Shown here: positions 8,629-17,634 of the stretch, one piece after another
How positions within the stretch are numbered: position 1 is the stretch's first letter
Layout: each line of letters begins with the position of its first letter
From: a virus
Length of the DNA stretch: 64,000 bases
IMG/VR virus record: IMGVR_UViG_3300042090_002597
Location: 1-64,000 of that record
Reading direction: 5' to 3' (one strand)
Translations under genes and position numbers: made by a program
Notes under the pieces: generated by a model
Database searches by the model: none
Told to the model about the DNA's origin: nothing
The model's input: the letters and a program-made list of their open reading frames with translations, nothing else

Positions 8629-9543
8629 CTACGTATCCGTGATCGTCTCGGTGTCCTGAACCACTTCCAGGTTCACATTGATCCGCTCGATCAGATTGAA
8701 CCCGGTGAGGATTGTTACATCAAACACACCCTCCAGGTCAAACATGACGTCGGCCCAGTAGAAACCCGGCATCTGGCCAGTGAACTCATCGTGGGTGGTG
8801 CCTGATGTCGCCTGGAAAGAATGCCGGATATTCTGTCCAATCTGAGAGAACAAGGTGGCTTTCAGTGCCCGAAAAGCCATGAGCAGCGTGTCGCGATAGA
8901 AGTCCCGCTCATCCGCATTCTGACTGAACACACTGATCCGCCAGACCCGTCTTGCCCAACCCGGCAGCGTCCACAGATTGTCCGGTTTCGTAACCAGGAC
9001 AACATCCTGACCAATCATCGTATCGTTCTGTTGGAACAAATCCAGATTGACGACAATGAACGGTGTCGCTGCCAGACCGCCCTGCGGCATTTTTGTGCTG
9101 ACCTGAACCGGCGCTACCGCTACACCTGCTGGTATAGGAGCGTTATCGCAAGCCGCCTGGAGAAGGCGAATCAACAGCTGCGACAGCCCATCTGGCGTCG
9201 TAACTATTGACCCTGCGGGTGTAATTGGTCCGATTTGAGTAGTGCCAGTCGTATCAGTGGTCCGCCACACATACTGAAGAGTAGAATCCAAAGGCTGCGA
9301 AGACGTGCTTGGCCCGTCGCCAACGTCTGCCCAAATAGGAAGAGGCGTGCCGCTGTATATTTGAGTGAACGTGCCGAGTCCTGTAACGCCGGATACCGCC
9401 CGGGAGAGCGTCATCAAAGTAACCCCAGACGGCGGCGAAAAATTGCCTTGATCAGCGCCATAGAACTGTAGAAGCACGGCTCCGCCTACCGGTAGCGGAC
9501 TCGCAACAACAGGAGGGCCGGACCCACTCATTTGCTGAACCAA
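8629..9543 (-). CDS. Putative neck/tail-completion protein
   Basis: 304 aa, located between the head-tail adaptor genes and the sheath; the true start may be the ATG a few codons downstream. Confidence 0.55.
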   Translation of the reverse strand: MVQQMSGSGPPVVASPLPVGGAVLLQFYGADQGNFSPPSGVTLMTLSRAVSGVTGLGTFTQIYSGTPLPIWADVGDGPSTSSQPLDSTLQYVWRTTDTTGTTQIGPITPAGSIVTTPDGLSQLLIRLLQAACDNAPIPAGVAVAPVQVSTKMPQGGLAATPFIVVNLDLFQQNDTMIGQDVVLVTKPDNLWTLPGWARRVWRISVFSQNADERDFYRDTLLMAFRALKATLFSQIGQNIRHSFQATSGTTHDEFTGQMPGFYWADVMFDLEGVFDVTILTGFNLIERINVNLEVVQDTETITDT

Positions 9544-9584
9544 AATCCTCTTGACTTACGAAACACAGAGTAGCACGTTAACAG

Positions 9585-9655
9585 CATCCGGCGCTGCCAA
9601 GCGTAGTACTGTACGGTAAAGTATGGTCCGGTCAAGCACCGCAAGCCAAGGTTTT
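9585..9655 (+). ncRNA. NGY-NN pentamer tract A (putative guide RNA)
   Basis: ggc-gc tgc-ca agc-gt agt-ac tgt-ac ggt-aa agt-at ggt-cc ggt-ca agc-ac cgc-aa gcc-aa ggtttt; a TTGACT -35-like box lies at 9551. Confidence 0.8.
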
Positions 9656-9874
9656 TCAGGCAGCCGATTTCAGTTTTACGCCGCCTTCCACAAACTCGAC
9701 GCCCGCTCGCTCCAGCGCACTGCGGATTTTTTCAGCAGTGCTAACCCGGGCGTCCCGCGCTCCACCTTCAAATAGTTTTACGGTGATCTCGGCCACACCG
9801 CTCTGCGCGGCGAGGTCCGACTGACGAATCCCCAGCAGCGCCCGAGCAGCTCTGACTTGTCCTGCGGTTAGCAT
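9656..9874 (-). CDS. XRE/Cro-family HTH transcriptional regulator
   Basis: MLTAGQVRAARALLGIRQSDLAAQSGV...ALERAGVEF is a classic alphaproteobacterial XRE sequence; transcribed divergently from the Cas7-like gene. Confidence 0.9.
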   Translation of the reverse strand: MLTAGQVRAARALLGIRQSDLAAQSGVAEITVKLFEGGARDARVSTAEKIRSALERAGVEFVEGGVKLKSAA

Positions 9875-9929
9875 ATTAGGGACATACCACAGCGGCTCCG
9901 CAAAATACAACTGCGTAGTAAAAACATAC

Positions 9930-9958
9930 TTGACGTATCGTAAATCATTGTCTATAGA
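9930..9958 (+). promoter_or_regulatory. Sigma70-type promoter for tract B and the Cas7-like gene
   Basis: TTGACG-17 nt-TATAGA directly upstream of tract B. Confidence 0.65.
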
Positions 9959-9962
9959 TGTC

Positions 9963-10027
9963 AGTAGCGCGTCGTGACGCGTTGCTAGGCCATGCAGCGT
10001 GACGCTCTGCTTCGCAAACCAAGGAGT
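9963..10027 (+). ncRNA. NGY-NN pentamer tract B (5' leader of the Cas7-like gene)
   Basis: 11 consecutive NGY-NN units (9963-10017), then ACCAAGGAG, which overlaps the RBS. Confidence 0.75.
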
Positions 10028-10032
10028 TAGGT

Positions 10033-10620
10033 ATGAAAATCCATGTGACGATTGAGGGCACTACCCCTCTTCTGATGAACCGTTTCACCGAGCAGAATGA
10101 GGTAGCCCTTTCCAGCGGCACTAGTGCCTCATTCAAAGGCAGTCGAGGCACACCGCGGGAGCAGGCAACACCGAAATGCTACGCAGACGAAAATGGCATG
10201 CTGTATATCCCCGGTCCGAACATCTTCGCCACCATTATCGCAGCGGGCACCTTCCACAAGGCGGGTAAGTCGAAGTTGACCACCATGAAGTCCAGTCTCA
10301 TTCCGGCCGGGCTGTTAGTTGAGGACTTGGTCTGTTCGCTCAACACCGACAAGTGGGAGGTGGACAGTCGCTCGGTGGTGATTCCCAGCACCGGCGGTCG
10401 CGTGATGTGCCACCGGCCGCGAGTGGATCACTGGTCATGTTCGTTCACTCCGGATGTCGACGGCACCATGTTTGACCCGTCCCTGATCCGCGCCGTAATT
10501 GACGACGCCGGGAAGAAGGTGGGTCTGGGCGACTACCGTCCGGCACGCAAAGGTCCGTTTGGTCGTTTCGTAGTCAAGACGTGGGCTGTCGAGGATATCA
10601 AGTTGAAGAAGGTTGCATAA
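10033..10620 (+). CDS. Stand-alone Cas7/RAMP-superfamily RNA-binding protein
   Basis: 195 aa; N-terminal beta strand (I.V.IEG.TPLLM), YIPG..I helix motif and C-terminal glycine-rich loop GLGDYRP..KGPFGRF typical of RAMP/Cas7. No other cas genes and no CRISPR array nearby. Confidence 0.8.
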   Translation: MKIHVTIEGTTPLLMNRFTEQNEVALSSGTSASFKGSRGTPREQATPKCYADENGMLYIPGPNIFATIIAAGTFHKAGKSKLTTMKSSLIPAGLLVEDLVCSLNTDKWEVDSRSVVIPSTGGRVMCHRPRVDHWSCSFTPDVDGTMFDPSLIRAVIDDAGKKVGLGDYRPARKGPFGRFVVKTWAVEDIKLKKVA

Positions 10621-10625
10621 TATGG

Positions 10626-10706
10626 CGTGTTGTTCTTCCTAAAGTTGCTGTGCCACGTCAGGCGTCGCACCGTAGGGTTTTGTTAGGCAGTGCAAAGCAA
10701 GGTTTT
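10626..10706 (+). ncRNA. NGY-NN pentamer tract C
   Basis: 12 uninterrupted NGY-NN units from 10646, ending TGCAA AGCAA GGTTTT. Confidence 0.8.
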
Positions 10707-10723
10707 AGTTTATTACATTTTAG

Positions 10724-10784
10724 CGCATAGCGAAGTGGTGTATTGTCCTGTTTCGCAACGCACGGTGGTGTAGCGCAAGGTTTT
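10724..10784 (+). ncRNA. NGY-NN pentamer tract D
   Basis: 12 of 12 units fit NGY-NN, ending CGCAA GGTTTT; an AT-rich linker separates it from tract C. Confidence 0.8.
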
Positions 10785-10791
10785 AATTTAT

Positions 10792-10873
10792 AGCAGTATA
10801 CGGCCCTGCGCGGTTACGCGCGGTCCAGTGCAGCGCACTACTGCCTGGCGCTGTATAGCTTGGCGAGGTTTTT
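10792..10873 (+). ncRNA. NGY-NN pentamer tract E
   Basis: 14 of 16 units fit NGY-NN, ending GGCGA GGTTTTT. Confidence 0.8.
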
Positions 10874-10882
10874 AATTGCGTA

Positions 10883-11422
10883 TTAAACTAATCCTTGAGC
10901 CATCCCCCTGGCCATCGCAGCTAATGTTCCGGCTGGAGAATAAGCTGGCATGCTCGGGATGATCCAACTGTCCGCCGGAGAGTTCGGTCCGATCGATGCG
11001 AATCCACTGGACGTACCGGCACGCACTTCCGCCCACATCATCGGCCTGGCCGGACCGCCGCCAACACGCTTCAAACCGGTCATGGAGAGATGCTGCGCGC
11101 TGCCGACCGGCCGGTGTATCGGTATGGAGCGGCCGCGCAGCGCGGCAACGGTCTTCATGTCGAACGAACGGTGGCCTTCCTCCAGAAACAGCGCCTCCGG
11201 TGCCACACTTTCGTCCGCCAGGATTGCGACCGTGTTTTCGTCGACCTGCCTGAAACTCAGCGATGAAGCATAGCGGCCGCTTGGATAGAACAGCCGCTTG
11301 CCGTTCAACATGTCCTTGCCGAGCGCGAAATTCATCCATTTCACGAATATCTCTACACCGATCTCGGTGACGAGTTCGGGTGGAAGGTCCGTCTTGATGA
11401 CGAAGACATGCCCCGTGCTCAT
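10883..11422 (-). CDS. Putative neck/virion morphogenesis protein
   Basis: 179 aa; SGRY..S, LEEG...FDMK and WIIP motifs, resembling neck-region proteins of large myoviruses. Confidence 0.55.
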   Translation of the reverse strand: MSTGHVFVIKTDLPPELVTEIGVEIFVKWMNFALGKDMLNGKRLFYPSGRYASSLSFRQVDENTVAILADESVAPEALFLEEGHRSFDMKTVAALRGRSIPIHRPVGSAQHLSMTGLKRVGGGPARPMMWAEVRAGTSSGFASIGPNSPADSWIIPSMPAYSPAGTLAAMARGMAQGLV

Positions 11423-11439
11423 GCTTGAACTCTAGTTCG

Positions 11440-11550
11440 GGTAGTGCTACTTCTCGCATTGTGTTGCTTGGTGCTGCTGCGCCCGGTGTCGCAGGGTACA
11501 GCGTTGTTAGGCGGAGCCGAGCGCCGCACTGTAGTGCAATGCAAGGTTTT
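11440..11550 (+). ncRNA. NGY-NN pentamer tract F
   Basis: 21 of 22 units fit NGY-NN, ending TGCAA TGCAA GGTTTT; lies intergenically between two minus-strand neck genes, with TTGAAC at 11425. Confidence 0.8.
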
Positions 11551-11552
11551 CA

Positions 11553-12428
11553 TTACGGTCCTATTTTAGCACTGCCAACCATTACAGTGTACGGCCGCGC
11601 GGTGCCGCCGACCTGCACCGAGCCCGGCGCCGACTGGGTTACGCCGCGCTGCCTCGTCCAGAAGTCCAGCGACTGCAGCCGCCAGCGCTTCGGCTCATTG
11701 GCCATGCCGCCACCGAAAGCGCGCGTATGCGGCAGGCCGCCCGCGGCGCGGAACACCACATAGATCGGCGATGCCTGAAACTCGACCATGTAGTTGGTGC
11801 CTACCGGATAGCCGCCGATTCTCACCGTCGGACCGTCTGACGAATAGTTCTCGACCGGTACCACTGCGTTGCTGACCGGATCCCATACCGTCACCGCACC
11901 CTGCGGCTCGATCTGCAAATTCTGCTGGTACGGCAGGTTCTCTTTCACACCCACCTGCAGCACTGCGGTGTAGCGGATCAGCGAATCGACCGGCACAAAT
12001 TGATCATTGGTGGATGCGTTCTGCCAAATATTCGTCGGCTGGCCAGGATCGCCGACCGGCAGAGTGGGGTTCCAGTAAGGCACCGTCAACGAGGGTTCGG
12101 CGGTCTGCCACATGCCGTACGATTCGTTCATCCGCACACCCGGCTCGTCGGGGGTGGGCGAGACGTGCATGAAGGTAATTAGCACCTTGGCCGGAATGGA
12201 AGGCGGATCCCAGTAAGTGCCAACACCACCGCACTGGGTGCAGTTGCGCTGCGCCGAGCCCAGTTGCGGTAGTTGTCCGTTGGCGCCGCTGCCGGCGTAC
12301 ACGCACGGGCATGTGTGCGATTTCAGCCAGGAGCAGCGTTGCCCATGGGTCGCGATCAATGCCTCGAATGCCCCCGGCGGAAGGGCTTTCAGAGTCGGCG
12401 GAATGAATGAACCTGCGAACGCGCTCAT
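11553..12428 (-). CDS. Putative head-closure/neck protein with zinc-binding motif
   Basis: 291 aa; F..LI..HG...W.KS..CPC...C..C.G.G pattern. Confidence 0.6.
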   Translation of the reverse strand: MSAFAGSFIPPTLKALPPGAFEALIATHGQRCSWLKSHTCPCVYAGSGANGQLPQLGSAQRNCTQCGGVGTYWDPPSIPAKVLITFMHVSPTPDEPGVRMNESYGMWQTAEPSLTVPYWNPTLPVGDPGQPTNIWQNASTNDQFVPVDSLIRYTAVLQVGVKENLPYQQNLQIEPQGAVTVWDPVSNAVVPVENYSSDGPTVRIGGYPVGTNYMVEFQASPIYVVFRAAGGLPHTRAFGGGMANEPKRWRLQSLDFWTRQRGVTQSAPGSVQVGGTARPYTVMVGSAKIGP

Positions 12429-14058: not shown

Positions 14059-15642
14059 ATGCTCCCCTTCAAGGAGTGTTTCGTGAAAGCAAACCCGATC
14101 AAATCCTGCCGCGGCTGCACCGACGCCGCTGTGCGAGCGAAGATGCCGCACGAGGAGCAGTGTAACGCCTGCCGAAAGAAAGAATTGAACCGAAAATGGC
14201 GGCTGGCCAACCCAGGTGCGATGGCTGCGAACGCCAGGAAATGGCGCGAGGCCGGCAACAAGACCGTCCGCCCCGAAGGTTACGAGGAGCAGCAGCGCCT
14301 CAAAAAACTGGAAAAATACAGAAACGATCCGGAACATCGCGAGAAAGCCAAGGCGGCCGCCAAACAGCGCCGTCTGGAAAAACCGGATATCGTGAAGGCA
14401 GAAACGAAGTCCTGGATGGAGCGTAATCGTCCGGCAGTCCGGCGGTACCAAAGCGATTATCAGCGCGAGCGGCGCGCGTCAGATCCAGAATTCCACCAGC
14501 GGCTGCTCACCGCGCAGAGCATGTGGCGCATCCGGCACTGGGCGAAAGACCCGCAGAGCAACAGCTGGATACGGCACCTGGAAAACCAATCAATCGACCC
14601 TGTGTGGCGCCAGAGACTGCACGTTTGGCAGGACAACCGATGCTACATGTGCAACAAAAAAGACAACAACATGACGATCGAACACATCATTCCGCGCAGC
14701 CGCAGTGGGCCGACTGTGAAACAAAATATCGTCTATACTTGTTCGTCCTGCAACTATTCCCGCAGGGCTTTGATATGGGGTACCGAGTGGCAACCTCGAA
14801 ATGTCGACACCAGCCTGACCGACCTGACGGTCACTTACAAAACGATCTCGCACGCACTTAGAGAGGCCGGACTAGAAGCTGCTGAAAACGGCCGCGGCGG
14901 TTTCCGCATCCACAGCGATAAGCGCGCATCGTCCCGCGATCTGTACATCCTGTCCACCTTTGCCGCCAGCGAGCGAAACGTGTCGTCTCGTGATGGCCGG
15001 TTCGCGTGCATTCTGCGAGACGCTGACCCGAATGCGATCATTCTGTTCGACTACGAATGGTACGCCCGGGCAAAAGCGGTGCTGAACATGCTTCGGTCGA
15101 AAATGGGCATCGCCGAGAAAGGGATCGGCGCCCGGGAACTGTCAGTGGTCGAAGTGTCCGCCGAGGACGCGACCGTCTTCCTGCGCGATCACCATGTTAT
15201 GGGTGCCGTGGACGCCCCGTTCCGAATCGGGCTGGCCAACGGCGAAATGCTCTGCGGTGTTGGGCTGTTCGCGGACCATGGCGATAGCTACGAATGCGTC
15301 CGGCTCGCCTTCCGCGGACATGTGCCTGGCGGCATGACCCGGATCATCCAAGGTCTGCGGCGCCTGCACGGCAACCGGCCGGTGACCTCGTTCATCGACA
15401 CCCGCTATGCCACTGGAGCCGGGCACGGGACAGTCGGCTTCACTTACGAAGGGAGGACCGAGGAAACCTACCTCTGGGTTTTGCCCGATCGGGTGCAGCA
15501 CCAGCGGTACTTGTCGAACGACAACAAGATGTCGCGCAATCTGCTCTATTTCAACCCGGACCTGCCGCGAGAAAAAAACATTCGTGCGAACGGTATTTTC
15601 AAAGTATGGGTTCCGCCGCGAGCCAAAATGCTACTGGCTTGA
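14059..15642 (+). CDS. HNH endonuclease fused to a Hef-like/GNAT-like homing-endonuclease domain
   Basis: CYMC...TIEHIIPRSRSG....NIV..C..CN HNH motif; C-terminal ARE..V.EV...A..FL..HH..G and S..D.RY motifs. Inserted antisense to the head operon. Confidence 0.75.
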   Translation: MLPFKECFVKANPIKSCRGCTDAAVRAKMPHEEQCNACRKKELNRKWRLANPGAMAANARKWREAGNKTVRPEGYEEQQRLKKLEKYRNDPEHREKAKAAAKQRRLEKPDIVKAETKSWMERNRPAVRRYQSDYQRERRASDPEFHQRLLTAQSMWRIRHWAKDPQSNSWIRHLENQSIDPVWRQRLHVWQDNRCYMCNKKDNNMTIEHIIPRSRSGPTVKQNIVYTCSSCNYSRRALIWGTEWQPRNVDTSLTDLTVTYKTISHALREAGLEAAENGRGGFRIHSDKRASSRDLYILSTFAASERNVSSRDGRFACILRDADPNAIILFDYEWYARAKAVLNMLRSKMGIAEKGIGARELSVVEVSAEDATVFLRDHHVMGAVDAPFRIGLANGEMLCGVGLFADHGDSYECVRLAFRGHVPGGMTRIIQGLRRLHGNRPVTSFIDTRYATGAGHGTVGFTYEGRTEETYLWVLPDRVQHQRYLSNDNKMSRNLLYFNPDLPREKNIRANGIFKVWVPPRAKMLLA

Positions 15643-15693: not shown

Positions 15694-17634
15694 TTAGGCG
15701 TTGGCACCCAACGGGTTCCATTGCGGATTATCAACCACAATGTTTTTTATGTACGCGTGGAACTTGGGGATTCTATTCCTAAGAGCCCCGATTGCGGCCA
15801 CACACCACGGCATATACAGGTTAGCAGCGAACAAATTGATCCTGGTCAGCGGCAGCAGGTAGCGGTAATCCATCGCGCCGTCTTCCTCGCGGAGGTCCAG
15901 CAGGTAGACCGATTCCGAACCCGGGATCAGGTAGTTGTAGTCCACGAAGGTAACCGTGCCAGAACCCGAAGCCGCGATCTGCCCGACATAGCGGAAAGCG
16001 GTCGGCGAACCCGAGGCGTTCAGATAACCACCGGCGCCCGAGCGGAACACACGGAAGTTGGTGGCATCCGCCGCCGCCGGCCCGGCGATGGCGACGTTGA
16101 CCGCGCCCGAAGTGGTGACGGACGAGCCGACCACATAGGACGAAGAGAAGGTCAGGGTCGACTCGTTCATGTTCACGTCGGTGGACGCGACCGCGTAGTA
16201 GTACTTGGTCGAGCCGGACGCATACGGCGAACCGGCGCCGACACCCCAGTTGCTGCCGCTGTAGGCGGCACCCGAGACGGTCATCACCACGCCGGTGGGC
16301 GGGGTGGGACCGGTCGTGGTGGTGGGCGTCGTGCCGTTCGACCGCGGCTGGCCCTGAGCGGGGATATCGCGGGCCGTGATGACGATATCGAGCGGGAACT
16401 GGATCGGTCCGAACCGGGTCCGCATGCCCTGGAGATCGCCGTCGACCACGATACCCTGGCGATCCGCGAAGAACGCATTCGCGAGGTTGTTCAGGTTGGT
16501 GGTGATCAGCGATTGCAGCGAGCCGGCCGTGATCGGCGTCATGAAGGCGTGCGTGGTGCGGCCGAACTTGGTCCACGAAGCGACGTTGCCGGCCACCTCG
16601 TAGATCATGTTGTAGAGGGTCTGCGCCGTCGACCAGCCATTCGCCACCGCGTTCGCGGAGTAGAATGCCTGGTAGTCGAAGATGTTGCCCGACGGGGTGG
16701 TTGCCTCGATGCCGTTGAACTGGTTCGGGAAGGCCGTCGAATTGCCCTTGTAGCAGAGCCAGTCAGCGGTCTGCAGCACGGTCAGCGCCGAGTTGGCGTT
16801 TTCCTGCTCGTTCACCGACACGAAGTTGTTCTGCGCCATCAAGGCGAGCGTGACGGCGCGGCCGTCCAGCATCAGCTTCAGGTTGACCGACTGCAGGGTG
16901 TAGATACCCGCATTGGTGGTCAGCGTGCCGCTGGAGACGTTGGAAAAGCCGCTGGTCGCCGAACCCGGCAGCGCACCGCCCGGATCATCGATGTAGGCGA
17001 AGTAGTCGACCACCTGGAAGGCCGGCGATTTGCTCAGCGCCTGGTAGAGCGTGAAGCTGTCCGGCCGCACGGTGCCGCGGGCGAGGCGCGTGTCGAGCGA
17101 CACGTAGCCGAGCGACTGACCGCCGGTGATGGAGGTGAAGTTGGTCTGGGTGCCGACATCGAGCACCGCTTTGGCCAGCGGATCGCCCGGGTAAGATTTC
17201 GCCACCTCGATCGGATCGATTTCCAGCAGACGCCCGCGGCTGGAGCCGGGGACCGGGCCGGGCGCATTGGTCTGATAGTAGCGCGGCGTGTCGCGCCAGA
17301 CCCGGGCGAATGCGTTCGCCGGCTCGGCGGCCTTGGCCAGCTCGGTCCGCATCTTGACCGTGTCGACCACATGGTTGTTGCCGAGATGCGCGGGCTGGCC
17401 AACCGCGAGACCGGCGAACAGCGGCCGCAGCGGGCCGAGATCGCTGTTGTGCGCCGGCAGCGAGTTCTCGAAAGCGCGGATGGCGCTCACCGAACGATAC
17501 TGTTTCTCCTCGTTCGGTGTGTCGCCGTTCGCGAGAACGGGATCGACATACTCGCCGTCGGGGCGCCGCTCAATCGACTTCAGGATGATTGCGGGCGGCA
17601 CCTTCGGGCCGGCGGACGAGATCTGTTCGGACAT
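15694..17634 (-). CDS. Major capsid protein (long N-terminal propeptide, FN3/Ig-like insertion)
   Basis: 646 aa, strongly biased codon usage; G.SL...SLD, E..N....V....DW....G......QFNG motifs; downstream of protease and scaffold, followed by a terminator. Confidence 0.8.
   Translation of the reverse strand: MSEQISSAGPKVPPAIILKSIERRPDGEYVDPVLANGDTPNEEKQYRSVSAIRAFENSLPAHNSDLGPLRPLFAGLAVGQPAHLGNNHVVDTVKMRTELAKAAEPANAFARVWRDTPRYYQTNAPGPVPGSSRGRLLEIDPIEVAKSYPGDPLAKAVLDVGTQTNFTSITGGQSLGYVSLDTRLARGTVRPDSFTLYQALSKSPAFQVVDYFAYIDDPGGALPGSATSGFSNVSSGTLTTNAGIYTLQSVNLKLMLDGRAVTLALMAQNNFVSVNEQENANSALTVLQTADWLCYKGNSTAFPNQFNGIEATTPSGNIFDYQAFYSANAVANGWSTAQTLYNMIYEVAGNVASWTKFGRTTHAFMTPITAGSLQSLITTNLNNLANAFFADRQGIVVDGDLQGMRTRFGPIQFPLDIVITARDIPAQGQPRSNGTTPTTTTGPTPPTGVVMTVSGAAYSGSNWGVGAGSPYASGSTKYYYAVASTDVNMNESTLTFSSSYVVGSSVTTSGAVNVAIAGPAAADATNFRVFRSGAGGYLNASGSPTAFRYVGQIAASGSGTVTFVDYNYLIPGSESVYLLDLREEDGAMDYRYLLPLTRINLFAANLYMPWCVAAIGALRNRIPKFHAYIKNIVVDNPQWNPLGANA

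Follow-up and report, generated by a model that had tools for sequence, protein, structure and literature searches.

Guides of a phage VIPR cassette probably aim at sibling alleles of the virion genes that flank it

What does a run of phased five-base repeats recognize when it lies beside the end of a virion gene that it partly matches? The question is raised by a 130-nt insert (11423–11552) that contains such a run, tract F, between the minus-strand virion genes P0001 and P0002 of a phage. The preliminary description of this DNA had proposed that tract F targets the end of the abutting gene, that the target is DNA rather than mRNA, and that the decoded guide preserves the C-terminus of a competitor or ancestral allele. 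Here, these proposals are evaluated in the window, that is, the whole 64,000-nt stretch that was analysed, which constitutes the first 64 kb of a 105,740-bp IMG/VR phage record.

Tract F (11440–11549) consists of 22 phased five-base units, 21 of which carry G at position 2 and a pyrimidine at position 3. When positions 4 and 5 of consecutive units are read as dinucleotides, units 2–17 yield exactly the 16 dinucleotides initially listed. A search for phased G-pyrimidine runs (at least 10 of 12 units) returned exactly six tracts in the whole genome, all on the plus strand and all within 9581–11560; given a genome background of 0.16 for G-pyrimidine, the six lie far beyond chance. Across these tracts, G occupies position 2 in 92% of units and a pyrimidine position 3 in 99%; positions 4 and 5 are variable, and position 1 is unconserved, with each base at approximately 25%. 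A common 3′ tail of four to five units, ending in GG and a T run, follows guides of 8–17 units. In the putative vrRNA F (11440–11550, plus strand), at most 17 guide units (11440–11524) precede the conserved tail of about five units, the GG and the T run. Published vrRNAs comprise 9–16 units and an invariant 3′ tail; each unit joins a fixed scaffold to two hypervariable bases, as GGY/NN or a related consensus, and variant repeat consensuses are known (bioRxiv 10.64898/2026.04.26.720920, 10.64898/2026.04.26.720927).

Several other readings of tract F were discarded. Period-3 sampling and ordinary local alignment of the tract against the gene end gave chance-level similarity and were superseded by period-5 sampling. 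A structured sRNA, a terminator, or a mobile mini-repeat sharing a 10-nt end motif was also considered and was superseded by VIPR; for the structured-sRNA idea, fold z-scores were near 0 and the consensus fold was weak. Rfam and tRNA searches returned no match, and the 17-nt tail motif, sought across the collection, turned up in 13 single matches, which is consistent with chance.

The gene that lends the tracts their context encodes P0003, a protein of 195 aa that belongs to no family in Pfam, NCBIfam, or PADLOC. A match was found to PDB entry 36pp_D, the “SUSP1 Vipr protein”, with an E-value of 1e-5 from the single sequence (phmmer) and 7e-11 from a family profile. In the alignment, the thumb motif H-R-P and the G-loop motif G-D-Y-R-P of P0003 fall on R138 and D177–R179 of SUSP1 Vipr, respectively; R138, D177, and R179 are conserved, and Tyr stands in place of W178. 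An AlphaFold model built from a 108-sequence alignment reached a pLDDT of 95.4 (37 when the fold was predicted from the single sequence alone), and its top Foldseek matches among solved structures were type III Csm3 and type VII Cas7, with E-values of approximately 1e-6. P0003 belongs to a large family (2,276 cluster representatives at E ≤ 0.001), and phased tracts adjoin the gene in all ten loci of P0003 homologues fetched from IMG/VR. On homology and predicted fold, P0003 is a Vipr, a minimal type of RAMP protein characterized by an RRM core, a glycine-rich loop, and a thumb. In the published VIPR system, a CRISPR-related, RNA-guided silencer of DNA, one Vipr protomer occupies each five-base repeat, hiding the scaffold bases and presenting the two variable bases; the resulting RNP recognizes either strand of dsDNA while leaving every third target base, usually the codon wobble, unread, and it thereby silences rival mobile elements at the level of transcription (bioRxiv 10.64898/2026.04.26.720920, 10.64898/2026.04.26.720927).

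The VIPR region (9532–11552) sits within the virion-gene operon of this 106-kb phage. At its left edge, a minus-strand gene for a 304-aa protein (8629–9543) flanks the cassette and contains the near-match of guide A; its true start is probably the ATG at 9531. Next comes vrRNA A (9590–9655, plus strand), with nine guide units and a tail and an own-genome near-match at 9083–9105, followed by an XRE-type helix-turn-helix gene (9656–9910, minus strand; HTH_3 match) that is divergent from vipr. Some VIPR types have DNA-binding accessory proteins, or vaps (VIPR preprints, 2026), and a divergent XRE homologue lies beside vipr in seven of ten related loci; the gene is a likely vap, as judged from its sequence and neighbourhood. 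The 5′ leader of vipr holds the vrRNA-like tract B (9963–10027, plus strand), whose phased units run into the ribosome-binding site. The vipr gene itself (10033–10620, plus strand) encodes the RAMP/Cas7-like P0003, and three tandem vrRNAs follow it on the same strand at 10626–10872 (C, 10626–10706; D, 10724–10784; E, 10792–10872). On the right, P0002 (10883–11422, minus strand), a 179-aa protein of unknown family, contains the near-match of guide E at 10920–10954, and P0001 (11553–12428, minus strand), a putative virion structural protein of 291 aa with a weak match to phrog_1004, lies beyond the tract F insert. P0001 has 77 homologues, and their C-termini are variable.

Several further observations concern the region and its surroundings. 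Tract B, taken as 9963–10032 on the plus strand, has 11 phased units, and because its tail leads directly into the ribosome-binding site and start codon of vipr, Vipr bound to this tract could autoregulate its own translation. Both vrRNA A (9590–9655) and vrRNA F (11440–11550) are antisense within the minus-strand late operon; a polycistronic late mRNA would carry perfect complements of both, which could lead to RNA–RNA pairing or mutual titration. No CRISPR array or cas-family gene was found around vipr, and domain searches of P0003, P0002, the XRE protein, and the 304-aa protein at the left edge revealed no nuclease. Outside the cassette, 2.5 kb from vrRNA F, a plus-strand gene (14059–15642) encodes a 527-aa HNH endonuclease (phrog_3339 homing endonuclease, Pfam HNH); it runs opposite to the surrounding minus-strand virion operon, with small structural genes on one side and the major head gene (15694–17634) on the other, and looks like a free-standing homing endonuclease. 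Elsewhere in the window, a tandem repeat with a 36-nt period and 3.3 copies (TRF) occupies 49556–49672 (plus strand), within 48297–49683.

Guide F has a conspicuous partial match next door. Units 2–17, read with every third base skipped, agree with the plus strand at 11553–11600 in 10 of 16 pairs and 22 of 32 bases. This stretch begins 3 nt past the end of tract F and covers the last 15 codons and the stop codon of P0001; guide F equals its plus strand and would thus pair with the coding (minus) strand. When both strands of the entire 105.7-kb genome were scored for guide F, it ranked first among approximately 211,000 positions. The match reported at the outset, including the run of six pairs at 11583–11600 and the stop codon, therefore stands as the genome-wide best, and the decoded peptide and the resident C-terminus were also read correctly. 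When the order of the guide units was shuffled, 10 pairs were reached anywhere in the genome by 1 of 500 guides and 22 bases by 22 of 500.

Similar near-matches exist for two of the other guides. By local score, guides A and F have their genome-wide best matches, and guide E its second best, at most 0.5 kb from their tracts, and all three near-matches are in the codon position 1–2 register. How strong they are depends on how they are counted. Counted by pairs, guide E agrees with its own genome at 8 of 12, guide A at 7 of 9, and guide F at 10 of 16, all below the level of 0.8; counted by bases, A reaches 16 of 18 (0.89) and E 20 of 24 (0.83), both at or above it. Guides A and E may thus also bind their own genome. 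For guide F, identity to the resident site is 0.65–0.79, depending on whether the guide is taken as 10 to 17 units. The adjoining match on which the proposed targeting of the abutting gene end was based is real, but the site is probably a sub-threshold self near-match rather than a functional target.

The polarity of the three guides bears on the nature of the target. As originally described, A and E correspond to the coding strand of neighbouring genes and F to the non-coding strand. Guides A and E, being mRNA-sense, cannot pair with the mRNA, and F is antisense; DNA is therefore the only target common to all three. The earlier suggestion that DNA rather than mRNA is recognized by guides A, E, and F is accordingly supported, both by the sequence matches and by analogy with the dsDNA binding described in the VIPR preprints. 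RNA-guided recognition of either strand of dsDNA with a gapped code is already published and is not new here. As for the skipped base, a hand count for guide E showed that position 1 of the next unit agrees with it in 3 of 10 cases.

If the resident gene end is probably not the target of guide F, what is? A candidate answer comes from a comparison with a close sibling, which covers 2 kb of one metagenome contig (L033). This contig carries homologues of P0001, P0002, and the 304-aa protein at 93, 89, and 87% identity, respectively. The three genes are contiguous in L033, with overlapping stop and start codons, and both the 130-nt F insert and the 1.35-kb cassette are absent. Two further contigs (L006 and L007) share with L033 a P0001/P0002 junction that has no intergenic spacer.

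Against the sibling alleles, the guides fit better than against their own genome. Guide A matches L033 in nine of nine units and 18 of 18 bases, compared with 16 of 18 bases in the resident; guide E matches L033, and likewise a separate contig (L034), in ten of ten units and 20 of 20 bases, compared with 17 of 20 in the resident (hand count). For units 6–16 of guide F, 20 of 22 bases agree with L033 and 17 of 22 with the resident. Each of these three scores on L033 exceeds those of all 200 shuffled guides in a search space of 643 kb. The sibling matches are again in the position 1–2 register, with A and E on the coding strand and F on the non-coding strand, and the sites (628–659, 1146–1174, and 1628–1653 of L033) bracket the empty insertion junctions at approximately 673 and 1211.

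For guide F, the advantage of the sibling varies with where the guide is taken to begin. Identity is 0.91 for the sibling and 0.77 for self over units 6–16, and 0.81 and 0.77 over units 4–16; over all 16–17 units, the two are about equal (0.65–0.69), because the five 5′ units match neither. L033 exceeds the published level of 0.8 for F only when unit 4 or a later unit is taken as the start of the guide. Among the alleles found, none matches these five units. Guides B, C, and D score at the null of shuffled guides, with no target found, and scans of IMG/VR with exact degenerate patterns for the F core and for guides C and D returned no matches.

Of the three footprints, only that of F is enriched in differences between the two alleles. 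Within its 11 codons, resident and L033 differ by six changes at codon positions 1–2, compared with 21 changes in 214 codons, and this enrichment falls on a C-terminus that varies across the P0001 family anyway; divergence in the A and E footprints is at background. P0001 ends in ...MVGSA in the resident and in ...LTGQA in L033, and the closest full-length homologue of P0001 (P0123) has the ...YTVLTG form. The notion that the decoded guide preserves a competitor or ancestral C-terminus is borne out to this extent: 11 of the 15 decoded residues fit the L033 allele, and both the ...LTGQA and ...YTVLTG forms turned up among the homologues, but the last four decoded residues and the stop occur in none of the homologues found.

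Taken together, the sequence comparisons make it fairly probable that a VIPR system has inserted among the virion genes and that guides A, E, and F are aimed at sibling alleles of the flanking genes. In this model, F would be one of six plus-strand vrRNAs that are transcribed and assembled with Vipr P0003. By analogy with SUSP1, one Vipr protomer would sit on each five-base unit, burying positions 1–3 and presenting positions 4 and 5, such that the filament would read dsDNA two bases at a time and skip the third base, the codon wobble. A gapped R-loop would then form and transcription would be blocked. The natural target of guide F would be the 3′ end of a P0001-type gene in insert-free siblings, such as the ...LTGQA allele of L033, and guides A and E would act likewise on sibling alleles of the other two flanking genes. 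The resident site at 11553–11600 would be spared through its divergence at five read bases within units 6–16, which would allow self to be discriminated from sibling. Because guide F fits L033 at 20 of 22 bases and the resident at 17 of 22, and A and E fit L033 perfectly, the resident site is probably a diverged non-target and the sibling allele the target.

Other explanations of the same matches must be weighed. A coincidental match of F to 11553–11600 is extremely improbable: although 22 of the 500 shuffled guides reach 22 of 32 bases somewhere in the genome, 10 pairs are reached anywhere by only one of them, the match lies 3 nt from tract F, in codon register and ending on the stop codon, and the corresponding site in L033 outscores both this match and all 200 shuffles. 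If the match is not fortuitous, guides F, A, and E might bind the phage's own flanking genes despite the mismatches, thereby tuning or timing transcription of the late operon. The near-matches are indeed the best own-genome sites and adjoin their guides, and by bases A (0.89) and E (0.83) reach the published level of 0.8 on self. Yet F attains only 0.65–0.79 on self, and the sibling alleles are the better fit, a perfect one in the case of A and E and, with E, on two separate contigs; selection for self-pairing would have produced the reverse. Moreover, the VIPR preprints report no self-target at 80% or above in the clades checked, and vrRNA-targeting guides score lower on self than on non-self (bioRxiv 10.64898/2026.10.15.759431). 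Regulation of the phage's own late genes is, on balance, quite unlikely.

The flank similarity might also be a functionless trace of history. On arrival of the cassette, its dinucleotides would have been taken over from an ancestral allele or fixed against it, and F may since have become inactive or turned to a different target. Such an origin would accommodate the five 5′ units of F, which match nothing found, and the VIPR preprints give no account of how vrRNAs acquire their dinucleotides. What makes a mere relic very unlikely is the state of the guides themselves. F retains its repeat scaffold, to which 21 of 22 units conform, and A and E are perfect on siblings whose proteins differ from the resident by 11–13%, so the matching appears to be maintained or recent rather than decaying. 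A more elaborate proposal accepts sibling alleles as the targets and treats the cassette and its outlying guides as a homing-like selfish module that marks empty-junction siblings during co-infection. The bound filament would either exclude the empty alleles or provoke recombination, and recombination would move the cassette, together with the linked escape alleles, into the rival genome. This extension is possible but unlikely.

Other vipr loci and relatives provide some perspective. In ten of them (L023–L032), near-matches to a guide's own flanks were not enriched; thus, the targeting of flank alleles is not a general property of VIPR. In one related locus (L027:3593–4358), which encodes a Vipr protein 69% identical to P0003, the gene is preceded by a 29-unit tract and followed by seven vrRNA-like tracts in tandem, an array much larger than that of the window. 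In a more distant relative, whose virion proteins are approximately 50% identical, an XRE homologue (57% identity) lies between a gene for a 363-aa protein and the P0001 homologue (L050:2325–2570 and L052:2182–2427), and vipr is absent; this homologue may be what is left of a VIPR system that once inserted at a neighbouring junction. A phased tract of five units near it was considered as a vrRNA and rejected as too short to convince. Finally, a different 110-nt spacer with a GC-rich hairpin occupies the same P0001/P0002 junction in another relative (L005:4843–4953), and for this reason the junction seems to accept inserts repeatedly.

This locus leaves knowledge of the VIPR mechanism unchanged. 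Its new point is a modest one: three of the six guides appear to aim at the flanking-gene alleles of an empty-site sibling, an arrangement that resembles homing or marker exclusion, and the aiming of guides at alleles of their own insertion-site flanking genes is not described in the VIPR preprints. The likely targets of three VIPR guides can consequently be read directly, as sibling-phage alleles of the guides' own flanking virion genes. Since resident and rival alleles differ by only two to five read bases, self/non-self discrimination by the gapped code is directly testable here. The locus also prompts the question of whether the exclusion of relatives with empty sites is how VIPR cassettes spread or persist.

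In its logic, the arrangement is comparable to free-standing phage homing endonucleases, which recognize the allele of a neighbouring gene in element-free relatives while the resident allele differs. Unlike those systems, the cassette has no nuclease, its recognition would be RNA-guided, and there is no sign of copying into the empty site. Closer in kind are the solo, non-self-directed vrRNAs of SUSP1-family phages and satellites (bioRxiv 10.64898/2026.10.15.759431). These also lie apart from vipr, and their guides also score lower on self than on relatives, which allows rivals to be targeted without autoimmunity; however, they target vipr genes, other vrRNAs, satellites, and host repeats, whereas the guides described here appear to target flanking-gene alleles, and vipr is present.

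The closest counterpart is the type II VIPR of Escherichia phage SUSP1 (bioRxiv 10.64898/2026.04.26.720920, 10.64898/2026.04.26.720927; PDB 36pp). Both systems are phage-encoded and possess a RAMP protein of approximately 200 aa, one vrRNA upstream of vipr (B in the present case) and an array of three downstream (C, D, and E), five-base repeats with two variable bases, a conserved 3′ tail, and a DNA-binding accessory gene, which is putative here. Either DNA strand is targeted in both, with a 1-nt skip at the wobble position, as judged in the present case by sequence match. They differ in that the Vipr proteins share only approximately 28% identity and that the first repeat G is unconserved here, in keeping with the variant consensus YNNNG given in the preprint. 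The accessory gene is a divergent XRE gene in place of the downstream vap1 of SUSP1, and the tail is recognized as a short sequence motif rather than as a demonstrated pseudoknot. Furthermore, vrRNAs A and F lie outside the core locus, between structural genes, and the predicted targets are virion genes of sibling phages, in contrast to the satellite targeted by SUSP1.

More distantly, the system recalls the Cas7/Csm3 filaments of class 1 CRISPR, with which it shares the RAMP fold, one protomer per guide repeat, and base flipping driven by the thumb. Here, the RAMP protein stands without a CRISPR array, other cas genes, or adaptation genes, and the guide period also differs, being 5 nt with two read bases in VIPR and 6 nt with five read bases in class 1 CRISPR.
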